This document shows, piece after piece, positions 513 through 25,022 of a DNA stretch of 64,000 nt (its first letter is position 1; each line of letters opens with the position of its first letter). Under the pieces are notes generated by a model. The model saw only the letters and a list, made by a program, of their open reading frames with translations, made no database searches and was not told the DNA's origin. Location: assembly GCF_056746865.1 (NCBI RefSeq), contig NZ_CM163382.1. One strand, 5' to 3'. A program made the translations under genes and the position numbers.

Positions 513-800
513 GGGATTCATCAGTGCTTGACCTTGTTTAAAAGCTGTAATATCGCAATTTACTAACTCAATATCTAAATCCATTGGCTTGGATGTACCT
601 CCTGCCTCAAGGAAGCTTTTTGAAAGCTGTCCAAAATCAATAGACTGATCAGCTGATTTCTGAGAAATGCTGCATGGAGCATCAACAACAGTTCCGTTAA
701 AAGTTACTTTACCCTGCCCCTGTGGAATAGTTGGAGCAGCATTTACACCAAAAGACACCACTGCCATAGCTACCGCACCGGCAATAATCGACTTAATCAT
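429..800 (-). pseudogene. papA: papA-like major pilin gene, 5-prime fragment (3-prime end replaced)
   Basis: Translation MIKSIIAGAVAMAVVSFGVNAAPTIPQGQGKVTFNGTVVDAPCSISQ...DIELVNCDITAFK matches PapA N-terminus; similarity stops near 537, tail is unrelated; ATG at 800 with upstream AGAGG. Confidence 0.75.
475..524. repeat. 50-bp perfect palindrome made of two head-to-head IS10-like terminal inverted repeats
   Basis: CTGATGAATCCCCTAATGATTTT-GATA-AAAATCATTAGGGGATTCATCAG read directly; left arm matches the IS10/Tn10 outside end as I recall it. Confidence 0.55.
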
Positions 801-1006: not shown

Positions 1007-1321
1007 TCAGTCAAATGCCGACGACTCATCTGTATAATAAGGTGCAAGCCTTGCTGCAAGAGCATTCAGCCGTATAAGTCTCCCAAGTGTTGTACTGAAA
1101 TACCCATTATTCATCTGGTATTTCTCGCAGACCTCCTTACGGGAGTGCCCACCTACCAGATAGTCCTTCATAGCCAGAATGACCCTGTCACTGTGAATAG
1201 AAGAAATACCTATCAGTAAAAAAAAATGCATTTCAGACATAGAGCCGGGCAACAGTACGCTCTCGCGTATATTCAGCAAAAACGCATTTCCTGACCGACT
1301 GATGACTTCATGATGCGCCAT
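1007..1321 (-). CDS. papB: PapB-family fimbrial operon regulator
   Basis: 104-aa product MAHHEVISRSGNAFLLNIRESVLLPGS... matches PapB/SfaB/FaeB family; sits upstream of the pilin gene on the same strand. Confidence 0.85.
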   Translation of the reverse strand: MAHHEVISRSGNAFLLNIRESVLLPGSMSEMHFFLLIGISSIHSDRVILAMKDYLVGGHSRKEVCEKYQMNNGYFSTTLGRLIRLNALAARLAPYYTDESSAFD

Positions 1322-1426: not shown

Positions 1427-1532
1427 GATCTTTTAACCCACAAAATAAAATTAAACTAGAATAAAACACTAATAATAAGAATGCGCTCAGATAAAAACAT
1501 CATAGTAAATTGAATTTACAGCATAAAAGATC
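1427..1532. promoter_or_regulatory. pap-type phase-variation switch: two GATC (Dam) sites 102 bp apart in the papI-papB intergenic region
   Basis: GATC at 1427-1430 (CGATCTTTTA) and 1529-1532 (AAAAGATCGT) read directly; spacing and flanks fit the Lrp/Dam pap switch; intergenic length 422 bp. Confidence 0.7.
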
Positions 1533-1641: not shown

Positions 1642-1668
1642 AGCAAACACAGCAAACACAGCAAACAC
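1642..1668. repeat. 3 x 9-bp perfect tandem repeat (AGCAAACAC)
   Basis: Read directly upstream of papI start. Confidence 0.8.
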
Positions 1669-1743: not shown

Positions 1744-1966
1744 ATGAGTGAATATATGAAGAATGAAATACTGGAATTTCTGAACAGGCATGATGGAGGG
1801 AAAACGGCAGAAATTGCGGAGGCGCTGGCGGTAACGGATTACCAGGCCCGCTATTACCTGTTATTACTGGAAAAAGCAGGTATGGTTCAGCGCTCACCAT
1901 TAAGACGGGGCATGGCAACATACTGGCTTCTGAAAGGAGAGAAGCAGGCGGGGCAGAGTTGTTCAC
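1744..1966 (+). pseudogene. papI: papI-like regulator gene, C-terminus replaced at junction with ISCR2 fragment
   Basis: [16 protein letters not shown]...RRGMATYW matches PapI; homology ends after ...AGQSCS (about 1966), then the frame runs into IS91-family sequence. Confidence 0.7.
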
Positions 1967-2612
1967 TTTGCAAACTCTGCCGACCAGTGGTGATCCGTTC
2001 GGTGACGGGATTGGCAAGGTAGCCGGGTCCAGCCTGCACGCCGGCGTGGCGGCCAGGGCCGATGAACGCAAGAAGCTCGAACGGCTGTGCCGGTACATCA
2101 GCCGCCCGGCGGTATCCGAGAAGCGGCTGTCGTTAACACGAGGCGGCAACGTGCGCTACCAGCTCAAGACGCCGTACCGGGACGGCACCACGCACGTCAT
2201 TTTCGAACCATTGGATTTCATTGCAAGGCTGGCCGCCCTGGTACCGAAGCCCAGAGTCAACCTAACCCGCTTCCACGGGGTGTTCGCACCCAACAGTCGG
2301 CACCGGGCGTTGGTCACGCCGGCAAAACGGGGCAGGGGCAACAAGGTCAGGGTGGCTGATGAACCGGCAACACCAGCACAACGGCGAGCGTCGATGACAT
2401 GGGCGCAACGGCTCAAGCGTGTTTTCAATATCGACATCGAGACCTGCAGCGGCTGCGGCGGCGCCATGAAAGTCATCGCCTGCATTGAAGACCCTATAGT
2501 GATCAAGCAGATCCTTGATCACCTGAAGCACAAAGCCGAAACCAGCGGGACCAGGGCGTTACCCGAAAGCCGGGCGCCACCGGCTGAGCTGCTCCTGGGT
2601 CTGTTTGACTGA
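1966..2612 (+). mobile_element. ISCR2-like (IS91 family) transposase gene, 3-prime fragment
   Basis: C-terminal translation ...NIDIETCSGCGGAMKVIACIEDPIVIKQILDHLK... is IS91/ISCR-family; lies upstream of the virD2-like/floR unit. Confidence 0.65.
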
Positions 2613-3743: not shown

Positions 3744-4958
3744 ATGACCACCACACGCCCCGCGTGGGCCTATACGCTGCCGGCAGCACTGCTGCTGATG
3801 GCTCCTTTCGACATCCTCGCTTCACTGGCGATGGATATTTATCTCCCTGTCGTTCCAGCGATGCCCGGCATCCTGAACACGACGCCCGCTATGATCCAAC
3901 TCACGTTGAGCCTCTATATGGTGATGCTCGGCGTGGGCCAGGTGATTTTTGGTCCGCTCTCAGACAGAATCGGGCGACGGCCAATTCTACTTGCGGGCGC
4001 AACGGCTTTCGTCATTGCGTCTCTGGGAGCAGCTTGGTCTTCAACTGCACCGGCCTTTGTCGCTTTCCGTCTACTTCAAGCAGTGGGCGCGTCGGCCATG
4101 CTGGTGGCGACGTTCGCGACGGTTCGCGACGTTTATGCCAACCGTCCTGAGGGTGTCGTCATCTACGGCCTTTTCAGTTCGATGCTGGCGTTCGTGCCTG
4201 CGCTCGGCCCTATCGCCGGAACATTGATCGGCGAGTTCTTGGGATGGCAGGCGATATTCATTACTTTGGCTATACTGGCGATGCTCGCACTCCTAAATGC
4301 GGGTTTCAGGTGGCACGAAACCCGCCCTCTGGATCAAGTCAAGACGCGCCGATCTGTCTTGCCGATCTTCGCGAGTCCGGCTTTTTGGGTTTACACTGTC
4401 GGCTTTAGCGCCGGTATGGGCACCTACTTCGTCTTCTTCTCGACGGCTCCCCGTGTGCTCATAGGCCAAGCGGAATATTCCGAGATCGGATTCAGCTTTG
4501 CCTTCGCCACTGTCGCGCTTGTAATGATCGTGACAACCCGTTTCGCGAAGTCCTTTGTCGCCAGATGGGGCATCGCAGGATGCGTGGCGCGTGGGATGGC
4601 GTTGCTTGTTTGCGGAGCGGTCCTGTTGGGGAGCGGCGAACTTTACGGCTCGCCGTCATTCCTCACCTTCATCCTACCGATGTGGGTTGTCGCGGTCGGT
4701 ATTGTCTTCACGGTGTCCGTTACCGCGAACGGCGCTTTGGCAGAGTTCGACGACATCGCGGGATCAGCGGTCGCGTTCTACTTCTGCGTTCAAAGCCTGA
4801 TAGTCAGCATTGTCGGGACATTGGCGGTGGCACTTTTAAACGGTGACACAGCGTGGCCCGTGATCTGTTACGCCACGGCGATGGCGGTACTGGTTTCGTT
4901 GGGGCTGGTGCTCCTTCGGCTCCGTGGGGCTGCCACCGAGAAGTCGCCAGTCGTCTAA
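3744..4958 (+). CDS. floR: florfenicol/chloramphenicol MFS efflux protein FloR
   Basis: 404-aa product MTTTRPAWAYTLPAALLLMAPFDILASLAMDIYLPVVPAMPGIL... matches FloR over full length. Confidence 0.95.
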   Translation: MTTTRPAWAYTLPAALLLMAPFDILASLAMDIYLPVVPAMPGILNTTPAMIQLTLSLYMVMLGVGQVIFGPLSDRIGRRPILLAGATAFVIASLGAAWSSTAPAFVAFRLLQAVGASAMLVATFATVRDVYANRPEGVVIYGLFSSMLAFVPALGPIAGTLIGEFLGWQAIFITLAILAMLALLNAGFRWHETRPLDQVKTRRSVLPIFASPAFWVYTVGFSAGMGTYFVFFSTAPRVLIGQAEYSEIGFSFAFATVALVMIVTTRFAKSFVARWGIAGCVARGMALLVCGAVLLGSGELYGSPSFLTFILPMWVVAVGIVFTVSVTANGALAEFDDIAGSAVAFYFCVQSLIVSIVGTLAVALLNGDTAWPVICYATAMAVLVSLGLVLLRLRGAATEKSPVV

Positions 4959-18949: not shown

Positions 18950-19505
18950 AATAAATCCTGTACCATCGTTGGACTCTCCCTCCAAAAGTTGGACATCCAA
19001 CTGATTAAGGTTAGTTTTTATGGCAAAGCCAAAATATTTTCTCTAAACCGAATAAGCTGTAGTTAATCATTATATTGCCGGACACGATGGTACACGTCGT
19101 ACCGCTGAACGTTTTGGTGTTGAAGAAACATCAGAGCGATGCTGGGTCAAGGGCTGGCAACTCCACGGTATTGATGGTATTACATGGCAAAATGACCGCG
19201 GCTCTCCTGAGTTTCGACTGACAGTTGTCCTGAAGGTTTGAGTGAAGAACTTACCATGCGCTAGGCCACTACACAGTTTAATATATCAAATGAAACCATT
19301 ATCTGGCACTGGGTGAAGGTTTACAAAGATACTGGTGAAGAAGGACTTATGAACATAAAACCAGGCCGGAGCAAGGACATGACAAAACTGTCACGAACGG
19401 CGCAAAAGTGGCTCTTCCTTGGATGTATCTCTATATTTTCATACATCTGTTATCACTTAACCTGTTACTGTCCTTCAAACGCAGGAGATTCAGGGGGCCA
19501 GTCTA
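18950..19505. mobile_element. IS3-family (IS150-group-like) orfA remnant with frameshifts, ending in an IS2-like terminal fragment
   Basis: Fragments ...VVNHYIAGHDGTRRTAERFGVEE... and ...WVKVYKDTGEEGLMNIKPG...; GGAGATTCAGGGGGCCAGTCTA at 19483-19504 equals the IS2 end. Confidence 0.45.
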
Positions 19506-20084
19506 ACCGCTAAGAACATGTTCCCGAAAATTGAGATAAACACGTTATGACAGCAACGTAAAATAAAACAGCGTTTTTTAGTCATAATGAACATGTAGAG
19601 TCCGTTTGTTCATACTCTGTGATTATCTCCATACGTTCATCTCTGGCGCTGCCAGATAGCGTTTTCGTTCTTACAGTCAATGCGCACCCGATACTGAATA
19701 TCGGCTTTCTTCCCCCGGGCGGTGAGATGCACTGTGACTAAATTATCACCTTTACTTACCAGCTCACGAAGATTCACCCAGACAACAGGATGCTGCTGAC
19801 TGAAGATCACCTAGTCATCTTTCCAGTGAAGCACCTGTTTCTGGAGATAGTCCCGTTTGACGCTGGCTGCAACAGCCGATGATTCCTGCCCTTCACATCG
19901 TGGAAAACTGACGGTTCTGTTTTTATCAGTAGCCAGTGATGATACACAAATACCGAAGGTGAGCAGAATTGAAGAGAGTGTTTTGTTTATTTACAGAACC
20001 CCATCATGGATAGCTCATTGTATTATTACTTTACATTTTAACAACATAAAATATCACTTTCAGAAGCAACAATCACATAACTTC

Positions 20085-21197
20085 TTATCCATTATTAATC
20101 ACCTTATACAACGGGAGCATCGCCGCGCCGCATGACGCACTCTGTGCTCCCATCGAAGAGGCAGCTAACTTCACTCTGGGGCGGTTGGGATCGAGGCAGG
20201 CTTCCATCAGTTGATTCAGTTCCTGCACCAGACGACTGATAATCGGTTTCGGCATCGCGCCACCGAGTACGATGATTTGCGGGTCTACCCACTGCACACA
20301 GCTGAAGAGCGTCTGCTCCACCTGGCCACGACAGCGTTCAAACCAGCTTTCCAGCAGTGGGTGCTGCCCGGCTATCAGCTCCGGTAGCTTAGTTTCACTG
20401 AATCCTTCACGCTCCAGTGTGGCAAGCAAATCCTTATACGACGGGCGCGGTGTACCGGATGGAAACGCCATCCCGACTTCACCGGCATTGCAGAACCCGC
20501 CGCGTAGCATTTTATTCCCGGAGATAATACCCGCGCCGATACCGTAGCCAAGGTCGATAAAGGTTAGATCGCTGTACGCATTCCATTTGCCGCTGTACAG
20601 TTCACCTACCGCCGAGGCGTTGGCATTATTTTCCACCCACGTCGGCCACGGCAGGTTGTCGGCAAACGCCTGCTGGAGATCTACCTCACGCCAGCTCTCC
20701 AGCCACGGTACGCTGTGGCGCTTGCGACCATCCGCTTTCAGAAATCCGGGCACTGCATAGCCAATGCCGAGAATACGTGCGTGCTGGAGCTGGCGCTTTT
20801 TCAGCATTTTCTCCACCAAGGTTTTGATCTGCGCGAGAGAGGCCTCCAGTGGCTGATTCTCCTGATGTGCTTCGCAAAGCGACAGCAGCTGGCGACCACT
20901 GAGATCGACCACCGTCATATCGATAAAACCGGGACTGAACGACAACCCGATAGCACAACCGCCGCCGGGGTTAAGGCGCAACGGCAGCGACGGCTGGCCG
21001 CGCTGCCCGGTATTGCGCTCCCCTTCCACCACCAGGCCGGAGAACATCAGCTCTCGGCACTGTTGGGTGATCGCCCCCGCCGTCAGTCCCGACAGCCGTG
21101 CCAGTTCAGCCCGCGTCACCGGGGCGTGGAGACGGATCAGTTCCAGCAGCAGGCGCTGCGAACCACGTAGTTCAAGGCGTTCAGAGTGGGCGTTCAT
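20085..21197 (-). CDS. ROK-family transcriptional regulator (NagC/Mlc-like)
   Basis: 370 aa with N-terminal HTH and ROK sugar-kinase-like fold motifs. Confidence 0.75.
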   Translation of the reverse strand: MNAHSERLELRGSQRLLLELIRLHAPVTRAELARLSGLTAGAITQQCRELMFSGLVVEGERNTGQRGQPSLPLRLNPGGGCAIGLSFSPGFIDMTVVDLSGRQLLSLCEAHQENQPLEASLAQIKTLVEKMLKKRQLQHARILGIGYAVPGFLKADGRKRHSVPWLESWREVDLQQAFADNLPWPTWVENNANASAVGELYSGKWNAYSDLTFIDLGYGIGAGIISGNKMLRGGFCNAGEVGMAFPSGTPRPSYKDLLATLEREGFSETKLPELIAGQHPLLESWFERCRGQVEQTLFSCVQWVDPQIIVLGGAMPKPIISRLVQELNQLMEACLDPNRPRVKLAASSMGAQSASCGAAMLPLYKVINNG

Positions 21198-21212
21198 GGT
21201 GTCCTTATTTTT

Positions 21213-22043
21213 CTAGTTCCAGCGCAGGCCTGCTTCTTCAATCAGTCCCTGCAAATACGGAATATCATCGTGGCTGAGCATATCAATCAGCCCCGCCTGC
21301 ATCCAGCCGATAATCACCGGACGACTGTCACAGCCGAATTTATAGTCGTACTGCTCCAGCGGCGTCATGCCGTTTTTCATTTCATGCAGATACATCCGCA
21401 CGCCCAGTCCGGCATTTTTGTAGGCCCGCAGGTCGTCGATATGGGCGAACTCGAACTCAAAGCAGACGCATCCGGCATTGGACTGCTGTACAGCCGCAAG
21501 CTGGTTATTGTAGCGCTCCAGCGTCACCACCTGTAACGCCAGTTGCGGGATTTGCGCCTTCACCCGGTTGATCAGCACATGGTTGAAGCCCAGCAACTGG
21601 ATATGGCCGAGGGCATCCAGATGCTCATGCAGCAGTGCGACCAGCGCCGCCACAAACTCGTCATGGCGGTTGCGCTGTTTGACCTCAACAATCAGCCCCA
21701 TGCTGTTTTCCACCGCCCAGCGCAGCACGTCCGCCAGCAAGGGGATGCGCGTTCCGGCAAACGACGGATGGTATTTCACGCCAAAGTCGCACGCCAGCAG
21801 CTGCGGGTACGTCATCTGCTCCACAAATCCGTGTCCGGTGGATACCCGGTCGATACGGTGATCGTGCGTGACCACCAGTTGGTTATCCGCCGTCAGGTGG
21901 ATATCGATTTCAATACAGTGGGTTCCCGCCAGGCGGGCGGCTTCAAAGGCCGGGAATGTGTTCTCCGGCGCGCAGCTGGAATAACCTCGGTGGCTGTTGG
22001 CCAGCACGATCCCCTCTGCCGCCCGGTGAAAGTTAAACGCCAT
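21213..22043 (-). CDS. glycerophosphodiester phosphodiesterase family protein
   Basis: GP-PDE motifs HRG...PENT...EIDIHLT...HD in the 276-aa product. Confidence 0.8.
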   Translation of the reverse strand: MAFNFHRAAEGIVLANSHRGYSSCAPENTFPAFEAARLAGTHCIEIDIHLTADNQLVVTHDHRIDRVSTGHGFVEQMTYPQLLACDFGVKYHPSFAGTRIPLLADVLRWAVENSMGLIVEVKQRNRHDEFVAALVALLHEHLDALGHIQLLGFNHVLINRVKAQIPQLALQVVTLERYNNQLAAVQQSNAGCVCFEFEFAHIDDLRAYKNAGLGVRMYLHEMKNGMTPLEQYDYKFGCDSRPVIIGWMQAGLIDMLSHDDIPYLQGLIEEAGLRWN

Positions 22044-22258
22044 CTTCTTTTCCTCTCGAATGTAAGATGGTAATTAACTTTACTACTTAAATTTAAATGT
22101 GAAAGATGTTTTTGTTATTTTATGGTTAACCCATTGTTTTATATGCTTTTAATTTGATATTTAGATCATTTTTTAGCTTTAAGGATCTGTGTCACATAAA
22201 TTTAATGTTTAGTATGTAAATTTAATAATCATCTTTTTAACCGATGGAAGAGAGACTC

Positions 22259-23326
22259 ATGTCAAAACTGGTTCTGGAACAGGTGACCAAAACCTTCGGC
22301 GAATTCTATGCCGCCAGAGAAATCTCGTTCTGCGCCGAAGAGGGGGAGTTCGTGACCCTGCTTGGGCCGAGCGGCTGCGGTAAAACCACCCTGCTGAAAA
22401 TGATCGGCGGTTTTCACCAGCCGGACAGCGGACGCATTCTTATTGGCGATAAAACGGTCAACGCCCTGCCGCCAGAAAAGCGCAATACCGCCATGTGTTT
22501 CCAGTCCTATGCGCTGTTTCCGCACCTCAACGTGGCACACAACATCTGCTTCGGCCTGAAGCAGAAAAAAGTCGCTATCAGTGAACAGCAGGACCGGCTG
22601 ACGGAGGCGCTGAAGCAGGTGGGGCTGGAGAGCCAGCGCCTGAAAATGCCCGCCCAGCTCTCCGGCGGCCAGCAGCAGCGCGTGGCGCTGGCGCGGGCGA
22701 TGATCACCCGCCCGGACGTGATCCTGTTCGACGAACCTCTCTCCAACCTTGATGCCAAGCTGCGCGAAAGCGTGCGTTTTGAAATCAAGGAACTCCAGCG
22801 GCAGTATCAGCTCACCTCGATCTACGTCACACACGACCAGGCGGAAGCGCTGGCGATGTCGGATAAAATTGTGGTGCTGAACGCCGGTAATGTTGAGCAA
22901 ATAGGCAAACCGGAAGAGATTTACTACCGTCCGGCCAACCGCTTTGTGGCCGACTTTATCGGCGCGGCCAATATCGACACCGCGCAGGTCACGCCCTCAG
23001 AGCAGCCGGGCTATTACCGGGTACGCTGTGCCCTCGGCGAGTTTTATGTGCATTCCGTACAGCCGCCACGCACAGAGCACTGCTATATCTGCTGGCGACC
23101 GGAAGATGCGCAGTATGTCAGCCAGCCTCAGGCAGGCAACAACCACTTCTCCCTGACGCTCGACAAAATGGCCTTTATGGGCAACCTCACCGAAGCCTGG
23201 GGCCACAACGACAGCGGGTTATCGGTCCGCTTACAGCTAATTAAAAAGCCGCCCGTCGCCCCCGGCGAGAGTGCCTGCTTCCGTCTGGCGGAAAACGCCA
23301 TCCATTTTCTGGAGCCGGTATCATGA
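22259..23326 (+). CDS. ABC transporter ATP-binding protein (PotA/FbpC/MalK type)
   Basis: Walker [10 protein letters not shown], signature [14 protein letters not shown], Walker [12 protein letters not shown]. Confidence 0.85.
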
Positions 23327-24189
23327 AAAACTGGCGCAATGATGCGGTCGCCTGGCTGCTGATGCTCAGCGGGCTGGGCACGATCCTACTACTGATGGGA
23401 TCGACGTTTTATGTGGTGATCGTCCAGAGCCTGGGCTGGTTCAACATCGAAGGCGACAGCAATTTCTCGCTGGAATACTGGCGCAATATGTTGCAGGACG
23501 AAGTGTTGCAAAGCGCCCTGTTCTACTCAGTGAAAGTGTCACTGCTGGGGGCGTTCGGCTCGGTGATTTTCGCCTATCCGCTGGCGCTGTGGCTGCGTAA
23601 ACCGATGGCCTATAAAGAGGGCATTATCGCGGTGCTGCGTGCGCCGATGTTTATCCCCGGTCTGGTGGCGGCGTTTCTGTTCGTCAATATCGTCGCTTAT
23701 CACGGCATTATCAACGAACTGCTGCTGGCGCTGGGGATTATCAGCGAGCCGCTGCGGATGCAGAACGATGACTTCGGCTGGGGCGTGGTTATCCTGCAAA
23801 TCTGGAAAAACCTGCCCTTCGCCCTGATCCTCGTCGGCGGCGCAGTCAACGCCATCCGTAACGACGTGCTGGACGCCGCCAGCAATCTCGGTGCCAGCCG
23901 CTGGCGCAGTTTTACCGGCGTGGTGGTGCCGCTGACGCTGCCCGCCGTGCAGGTGACGCTGATTCTGGTATTTATCGGCGCGCTGGGCGACTTCGCCTTC
24001 TTCTCGGTGGCCGGGCCACGCAACACCTACTCGCTGGCGCGGCTGATGCAGGCCACCGCCATGGAGTACGGCGAGTGGAATAACGCGGCGGTGATTGCGG
24101 TGATCATTATGGTCACGGCGGCCATCTGCACGTTGCTGATTGCCACACTGATTACCCCGTTCGCCACCCGCAAAGGAGAGGTCAAATGA
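23323..24189 (+). CDS. ABC transporter permease
   Basis: 288-aa polytopic membrane protein; start overlaps ATPase stop. Confidence 0.8.
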   Translation: MKNWRNDAVAWLLMLSGLGTILLLMGSTFYVVIVQSLGWFNIEGDSNFSLEYWRNMLQDEVLQSALFYSVKVSLLGAFGSVIFAYPLALWLRKPMAYKEGIIAVLRAPMFIPGLVAAFLFVNIVAYHGIINELLLALGIISEPLRMQNDDFGWGVVILQIWKNLPFALILVGGAVNAIRNDVLDAASNLGASRWRSFTGVVVPLTLPAVQVTLILVFIGALGDFAFFSVAGPRNTYSLARLMQATAMEYGEWNNAAVIAVIIMVTAAICTLLIATLITPFATRKGEVK

Positions 24190-25022
24190 GCCACACTGCC
24201 AACGGTCGCCGGGTGGTGACGATTTCGCTGATCTTCTTCGTGGTCGCTAATCTGATCTGGCTGGGTATGCCGTTCGGCATGGCGATCCTCTGGTCGCTGG
24301 TTGACCCGGCCCATCCGTGGAGCTACCCGGATATCTTCCCGCCGGTGCTGTCGTTCAGCCGCTGGCTGCTGGTATGGGAAAAGACTTCGCTTTCCGAGGC
24401 GCTGTTCAACAGCTACACCATTGCGCCTGCGGTAGCGGTCGCCAGCCTGCTGCTGTCGCTACCCACCGCGTATGCCTTCGGGCGCATGACCTTTCGCGGT
24501 AAGGCGGTGGCGGAGATGCTGACGCTGATCCCGCTGGTGATGCCGGGGATGCTGATCGGGATTTTTTTCAGCGCCATGCTGATCAACCTCAATATCGACA
24601 ACGCGTTTATCAGCATTGTTATCGGCCATACGGTACTGACGCTACCCTATTCGATCCGCATTATGTCTGCGGGGTTTAAGTCTGTGCCGCAGGATCTGAT
24701 CGACGCCAGCCGCGACCTGGGCTCCGGCGCGTGGGACACCTTCTGCAATGCCTATCTGCCGCTGTTAAAACCGAGCTTCCTGGCGGCGCTGATTTTTTGT
24801 CTGGTGCGAAGCCTGGAAGAGTTCGGCATCTCATACGTGCTGGGCGCGCCGGACTTTATCACCGTTCCGACCATTCTTTACTCTTTCCTTGGCTACTCCT
24901 TCGTCCGCCCGGATGCGGCGGTGGTGTCGATGATTCTGGTGATCCCCAATGTCATCCTGATGGTCATCATTGAGAAGTTGCTGAAGGGGAACTATCTGTC
25001 GCAATCCACGGGAAAAGCCTGA
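24186..25022 (+). CDS. ABC transporter permease
   Basis: 278-aa polytopic membrane protein; overlapping start. Confidence 0.8.
   Translation: MSHTANGRRVVTISLIFFVVANLIWLGMPFGMAILWSLVDPAHPWSYPDIFPPVLSFSRWLLVWEKTSLSEALFNSYTIAPAVAVASLLLSLPTAYAFGRMTFRGKAVAEMLTLIPLVMPGMLIGIFFSAMLINLNIDNAFISIVIGHTVLTLPYSIRIMSAGFKSVPQDLIDASRDLGSGAWDTFCNAYLPLLKPSFLAALIFCLVRSLEEFGISYVLGAPDFITVPTILYSFLGYSFVRPDAAVVSMILVIPNVILMVIIEKLLKGNYLSQSTGKA

Follow-up and report, generated by a model that had tools for sequence, protein, structure and literature searches.

Tandem repeats in adhesin control regions

Tandem repeats that sit in the control regions of adhesin genes have been described in other bacteria. In Neisseria meningitidis a TAAA tract upstream of nadA modulates adhesin expression, and in Haemophilus influenzae TA repeats between the divergent hifA and hifB promoters have the same role. 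The units of the nadA and hif tracts are 1-4 bp long and present in many copies, switching within a clone takes place at high frequency, and effects on expression have been measured. The pap switch is the textbook case of epigenetic phase variation through Dam, Lrp and PapI, and the regulatory DNA behind it is commonly taken to be an invariant one-copy reference. Does this DNA vary in length as well? In the window, by which we mean the whole 64-kb stretch of DNA that was analysed, the triple AGCAAACAC repeat upstream of papI is one allele (N=3, where N is the number of units) of a copy-number-variable 9-bp repeat. It resembles the nadA and hif tracts in being a tandem repeat in an adhesin control region, in varying among strains and in shifting the spacing of regulator sites. 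It differs from them in its 9-bp unit, in its copy numbers, which are mostly 1-5, and in its rate of change, which is apparently low. One mark of a contingency locus, a control-region tandem repeat of strain-variable copy number, is found in the array; by the defining traits of such loci, rapid change within a clone and an influence on expression, it is at most a candidate.

The intergenic VNTRs used in MLVA are another useful comparison. They are likewise perfect short repeats whose copy number differs among near-identical haplotypes. Compared with them, the pap array lies inside the regulator-binding region of a virulence operon, and it is available only in pap-positive or relic-carrying strains. 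Closest of all known systems is the reference form of the pap regulatory region itself, and we regard the array as a probable length variant of its PapB site 1. A literature search, with most primary pap papers outside its reach, returned no description of this repeat polymorphism and no match to the exact string AGCAAACACAGCAAACAC.

The array among the landmarks of the pap regulatory region

Positions 1642-1668 read AGCAAACACAGCAAACACAGCAAACAC, that is, (AGCAAACAC)x3 with zero mismatches by direct sequence reading. Tandem Repeats Finder (TRF) reported 1642-1670 with period 9, 3.2 copies, 100% matches and no indels; the call runs on to 1670 because the AG after the array keeps the 9-bp register. 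The 3' end of the array is 75 bp upstream of the papI ATG at 1744, and no other perfect period-9 array of at least 3 copies is present within the 64-kb window. The genes papB (minus strand) and papI (plus strand) are divergent, with 422 bp between them, and this part of the window is 99.8-100% identical to loci annotated with papA, papH, papC, PapB and PapI, including that of the E. coli type strain ATCC 11775. By this arrangement and identity the window carries a bona fide pap regulatory region, which is present in about 1,244 (1,244-1,245) of the 5,426 complete E. coli genomes.

The landmarks follow each other in the order papB, papBA promoter, proximal GATC, distal GATC, CRP site, array, papI promoter and papI. 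The proximal GATC, the Dam site on the side of the papBA promoter, is at 1427-1430, and the distal GATC, the Dam site on the papI side, is 102 bp away at 1529-1532. A CRP-like site, TGTGA-TACATA-TCAAA, occupies 1585-1600 with its centre at 1592.5 (all three by sequence reading), and its TGTGATA core is invariant across the alignment of pap and sfa. A sigma-70 consensus scan predicts the papI promoter at 1691-1719 on the plus strand (TTGATA, a 17-bp spacer and TATTAT, 10/12 matches), which would put the papI start near 1726, about 7 nt past the -10, a position taken from the consensus scan only. The spacing of the GATC pair is 101-103 bp in pap, sfa/foc, fae, pef and clp-like regions, in DNA that is otherwise unalignable. 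This spacing comparison covered window positions 1427-1532 and the loci L005, L006, L007, L050, L051 and L052.

What kind of DNA does the array belong to? The high-affinity PapB site 1 has been placed in the interval from the CRP site to the papI promoter (review PMC11316696), and PapB and FocB, in oligomeric form, bind to AT-rich motifs (PMC5956150). In the window this interval holds an A-rich tract with a period of about 9 bp, at 1596-1690, which we infer to be PapB-binding site 1, an upstream activating region, from TRF, CAAA spacing, autocorrelation and the review (PMC11316696). The CAAA motif occurs at 1597, 1606, 1617, 1635, 1644, 1653 and 1662, with spacings of 9, 11, 18, 9, 9 and 9, and TRF reported a second, weaker period-9 array at 1597-1665 with the consensus CAAATAAAG and 70% matches. 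For the interval from the CRP site to the -35 in one-copy pap, the top self-similarity lag is 9 (0.46, z 2.0; 17 lags tested), and lag 9 is again at the top in the sfa region, which is 72% identical (0.49, z 2.9; 17 lags tested). The 9-bp periodicity that underlies the tract is therefore a modest signal (z 2.0 to 2.9). Xia and co-workers are said to have described the PapB motif in 1998 as a repeat of 9 bp in which T/A triplets keep a conserved position. The CAAA spacing, the lag-9 signal and the repeats of sfa/foc are consistent with such a motif. Relative to the inferred papI start, the array here spans about -84 to -58, and the single unit of an N=1 locus about -66 to -58; both fit the region of PapB site 1, from the CRP site to the papI promoter, about 40-90 bp upstream. 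The array thus appears to lie inside the tract assigned to PapB site 1, and its units would be bound by PapB.

The geometry of the region depends directly on copy number. Every further unit lengthens the stretch from the distal GATC to the papI promoter by 9 bp, from 144 bp at N=1 to 162 bp for the three units of the window. From the CRP centre to the inferred papI start there are 115.5 bp at N=1 and 133.5 bp in the window, and 232.5 bp at N=14 if the values of N=1-6 are extrapolated. The spacing between CRP site and papI start in the papers of the Low laboratory is reportedly the same as the 115.5 bp computed here at N=1. Each unit shifts the distance from CRP to papI by 9 bp, or 0.86 helical turn, and integral helical turns are not favoured among the observed copy numbers. 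This argues against a strict phasing requirement, unless PapB oligomers bridge the gap.

A preliminary description of this DNA had recognized the pap regulatory region and a perfect triple 9-bp repeat about 75 bp before papI. The former is borne out by the identity to annotated pap loci, and the latter is confirmed by the sequence itself, by TRF and by the start of the papI ORF. It had also proposed that copy number sets the spacing between the distal GATC/Lrp sites and the papI promoter. This holds as geometry, at 9 bp for each unit, but the array lies beyond the CRP site as seen from the distal GATC. The elements most directly affected by copy number would then be the length of the PapB operator and the spacing from CRP to papI, besides the Lrp/GATC spacing.

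Copy number in intact and truncated pap loci

The one-copy pap reference, which is dominant in UPEC such as ST131, shares with the window the genes and their order, the 102-bp GATC pair, the CRP-like site and the predicted papI promoter, and it has a AGCAAACAC unit at the same place as the array. The window differs from it in having three units, or 18 bp more, in a few substitutions to the left of the array, and in missing the operon downstream of papB. Among E. coli loci the states N=1, 2, 3, 4, 5, 6, 8 and 14 were seen, and every copy is perfect. A first alignment of six pap loci had 1, 3, 4, 5 and 6 units between identical flanks. A rank-spread sample drawn from the complete E. coli genomes had 54 pap rows, 40 of them with N=1, 9 with N=3, 3 with N=4 and 2 with N=5. 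Among the matches listed by a blastn ranking with the 6-copy allele, three genomes had N=6, one had N=14, three had N=8 and 25 had N=5, and at least 28, strain S88 included, had N=4; N=7 was in none of the matches listed. It should be noticed that these frequencies rest on the rank-spread sample and on top-ranked lists out of about 1,245 loci. The distant mode of blastn ranks the loci by copy number, while in megablast 27-bp gaps split the alignments, so that 3-copy loci were tied with 6-copy loci.

Two states are rare. N=2 was looked for in complete genomes and not found, and it was seen only in one metagenome contig (L035). A search of metagenomes with a flank-plus-unit pattern gave 36 contigs, of which 29 have N=1, 1 has N=2, 2 have N=3, 3 have N=4 and 1 has N=5. 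N=14 belongs to strain N68, an isolate from CSF with an intact operon, and is represented by a single assembly; it was confirmed, as was N=8, by sequence reading. In the same strain RefSeq has a 'papI protein' ORF on the minus strand (L058, 2010-2300), antisense through the 14-copy array, with a translation that repeats as FAVFAV... and so on. This ORF is very likely a spurious gene call that resulted from the expansion.

How fast does copy number change relative to the surrounding DNA? The flanks of loci with N=3, 4, 5, 6, 8 or 14 are separated from those of the window by at most 2 substitutions in 1,390 bp, in an ungapped comparison that covers the near-identical allele group; the mismatch counts of Z22-2, ST131, E19 and AH20E044 were left out of it, as some of them are probably indel offsets. 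Since N differs at two or fewer flank substitutions, copy number is by far the fastest-changing character of the region and has changed repeatedly. Expansions are found on at least 3 distinct flank backgrounds. The PapB/CRP-to-papI interval is thus length-polymorphic in about one quarter of the loci with the region, relics included, and its length differs by up to 117 bp between near-identical operons. The preliminary description had named three copies in all reference pap-family regulatory regions as the finding that would speak against it, and N was found to run from 1 to 14. From the alignment of the family that it had proposed, two things are gained, the variable copy number in pap and the imperfect repeats of sfa/foc; fae, pef and clp-like regions did not align.

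In the sfaC-sfaB region of sfa/foc (S and F1C fimbriae) the layout is homologous, with the GATC boxes and the TGTGATA core of the CRP site kept, and imperfect 9-bp repeats (AGTAAATAC/ACCAAATAC) stand at the position aligned to the array. It differs from pap at a DNA identity of about 72%, and the exact unit, a perfect array and a change of copy number are all absent in the two loci read. The fae, pef and clp-like regions are too diverged to align and the AGCAAACAC unit is absent from them; close to their distal GATC there are imperfect repeats of 8-9 bp, rich in A and C. As a separate observation, the two sfa/foc alleles (L006 and L007) differ in a poly-A run upstream of the CRP-like site (alignment columns 258-270), which is A12 in SCU-484 and shorter in ERP001. 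The family thus has a further tract of variable length.

The pap operon of the window is itself not intact. Identity to intact pap stops at 524/525, after papA codon 92, and at 1964/1965, after papI codon 74. At the left end of the relic there is a perfect 50-bp palindrome (475-524) in which two 23-bp IS10/ISVsa5 terminal inverted repeats enclose GATA, and a complete ISVsa5 occupies its junction in L003, L056 and L059. The palindrome resembles the 50-bp remnant that a 'nearly precise excision' of Tn10/IS10 leaves behind. Between the two junctions lie a 5' remnant of papA (525-800, minus strand) with the first 92 of 182 codons, and an intact papB (1007-1321, minus strand), whose 104-aa product matches PapB from intact operons exactly (WP_000930062.1 in intact and relic loci alike). 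A chimeric ORF papI' (1744-2022, plus strand) spans the right junction, with 92 aa from 74 native PapI codons up to 1964 and 18 codons of the ISCR2 side; in other copies of the relic its RefSeq annotation is that of a FaeA/PapI family regulator (WP_001349530.1). The right end is formed by a 5'-truncated fragment of the ISCR2 transposase gene (1965-2612, plus strand), which is followed by a DUF3363 gene, floR (3744-4958) and lysR. Neither papH, papC nor any later pap gene is present beyond the relic, and a complete papBAHCDJKEFG operon in cis is absent. Therefore, the pap operon of the window is a dead relic, papA'-papB-papI', caught inside an antibiotic-resistance island with floR, and the array travels in it as a passenger. 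The window has no fimbrial output that could still be regulated in cis, and its array is irrelevant to fimbrial biology.

The relic is widespread. Both of its junctions are present in 166 of the 5,426 complete E. coli genomes and in the IncI NDM-5 plasmid pNDM5_LS003, and the fragment 525-2612 is shared by L003, L053-L057 and L059. Two sub-lineages can be told apart. The floR type, to which the window, L053, L055 and L057 belong, has the 50-bp remnant and N=3, and the smaller sul2 type has the full ISVsa5, with N=4 in 8 genomes, N=5 in 1 and N=8 in 3. All 60 copies of the papI::ISCR2 junction among the matches listed have N=3. This suggests that slippage is slow in an array of three copies and faster in longer ones. 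An array of three copies would then not be hypermutable, and the 3-copy relic sub-lineage looks stable.

The relic may nevertheless have consequences of another kind. PapB has been reported to repress the switching of type 1 fimbriae (PMC11316696). Multidrug-resistant strains with the relic might express the orphan PapB as a stray fimbrial cross-regulator, and the orphan papB of the floR/sul2 island, together with its autoregulatory region, could dampen type 1 fimbriation in these strains. The first 12 kb of the window are a resistance mosaic, and the first 25 kb have no full-length match in the set of complete genomes. Positions 12269-25000 match chromosomal islands in many E. coli genomes, with an S6-family autotransporter peptidase (a 1,291-aa ORF at 12840-16715), an AbgT transporter, a ROK regulator and an ABC transporter.

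Origin of the array and its possible effect on papI

With the repeat, its place among the landmarks, its polymorphism and the relic status of its operon established, how did the array arise? A single copy was most likely ancestral, because it is the majority state and the sole state in the most diverged pap alleles that were read. An AG stands at either boundary of the unit (AG-CAAACAC-AG), and this microhomology at the flanks of a single AGCAAACAC unit would have allowed a first duplication by slippage. Recurrent replication slippage would then change the length of the array. Each unit would add an in-register A-triplet module, resulting in a longer PapB operator, and would put 9 bp more between the papI promoter and both the CRP site and the distal Lrp/GATC sites. 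In intact operons this might alter the activation of papI and with it the switching. On the whole we consider it probable that the array is the N=3 allele of a VNTR in the tract of PapB site 1, that it came about by slippage and lengthened the operator, and that it is carried in the window as a passenger of a floR-island relic.

Could the array be explained without slippage? The surroundings are A-rich and contain weak repeats, so the array may look like a product of chance or of low complexity in AT-rich intergenic DNA, with no identity of its own. However, simulation produced no perfect 9x3 array, either in 300 first-order-Markov versions of the 64-kb window or in 20,000 sequences composed like the AT-rich 422-bp intergenic region, and homologous loci share the AGCAAACAC unit in 1-14 perfect copies. 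Chance does not account for the triple repeat; such an origin is ruled out by the simulations and the homologous arrays, and we give it practically no credence. Target duplications of IS10 are 9 bp long. The unit has just this length and an IS10 remnant lies 1.1 kb away at 475-524, which would agree with a footprint of IS10/Tn10, but intact pap operons that have no IS10 nearby carry arrays of 3-14 copies as well. Moreover, the units, up to 14 of them, are directly adjacent with no IS sequence between them, and the unit departs from the IS10 target consensus NGCTNAGCN. A target-duplication origin, ruled out by the IS10-free intact operons with arrays, is hardly credible. It is also true that repeats are prone to mis-assembly, and the differences in copy number would then be artefacts of sequencing or assembly. 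Against this, arrays of 27-126 bp are spanned by single reads, and the states N=4, 5, 6 and 8 recur in independent assemblies, in the numbers given above for the matches listed. States recur in independent metagenome contigs as well, so that only N=14 depends on one assembly, and we think artefacts a very improbable explanation.

A more serious question is whether the array is under selection as a tuning element, similar to a contingency locus, in which copy number would act on PapB occupancy, or on the spacing and helical phase between CRP and the promoter, and so set the transcription of papI, the OFF-to-ON rate of P fimbriae and heritable frequencies of piliation. The array is located in the papI-activating region, and the distance from CRP to papI is altered with each unit. 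Near-identical intact operons of ExPEC and APEC have 3, 4, 5, 6 or 14 copies, and N=2 is almost never seen. But the array also varies (N=3, 4, 5 and 8) in relics without fimbrial genes, and therefore neutral slippage is enough to explain the variation and selection is not needed. Integral helical turns are not preferred, and the 3-copy relic lineage appears stable. We thus regard selected tuning as rather unlikely. A related proposal, about which we are equally doubtful, is an expandable PapB operator with each unit as the site of one PapB protomer, in which case the alleles with N=1, 3-6, 8 and 14 would differ heritably in papI level and OFF-to-ON rate. If true, slippage would act as a genetic dial on the epigenetic Dam/Lrp switch, concentrated in the ATCC 11775/S88-type allele of human ExPEC and of APEC. 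An effect of copy number on papI expression or switching is plausible from the geometry. The alleles form a natural series for the control of papI by PapB oligomerisation or by CRP distance. What is more, the array is a cheap typing marker for pap operons of the ATCC 11775/S88 type and for following the floR/sul2 island in which the relic travels.

A single further perfect tandem array of short units was found in the 64-kb window, a hexanucleotide repeat, (AGCCTG)x4.5, at 45913-45939. It encodes the N-terminal (QA)n of a 606-aa ORF (44242-46062, minus strand), which has six tandem repeats of about 39 aa and by eye resembles a trimeric autotransporter adhesin.
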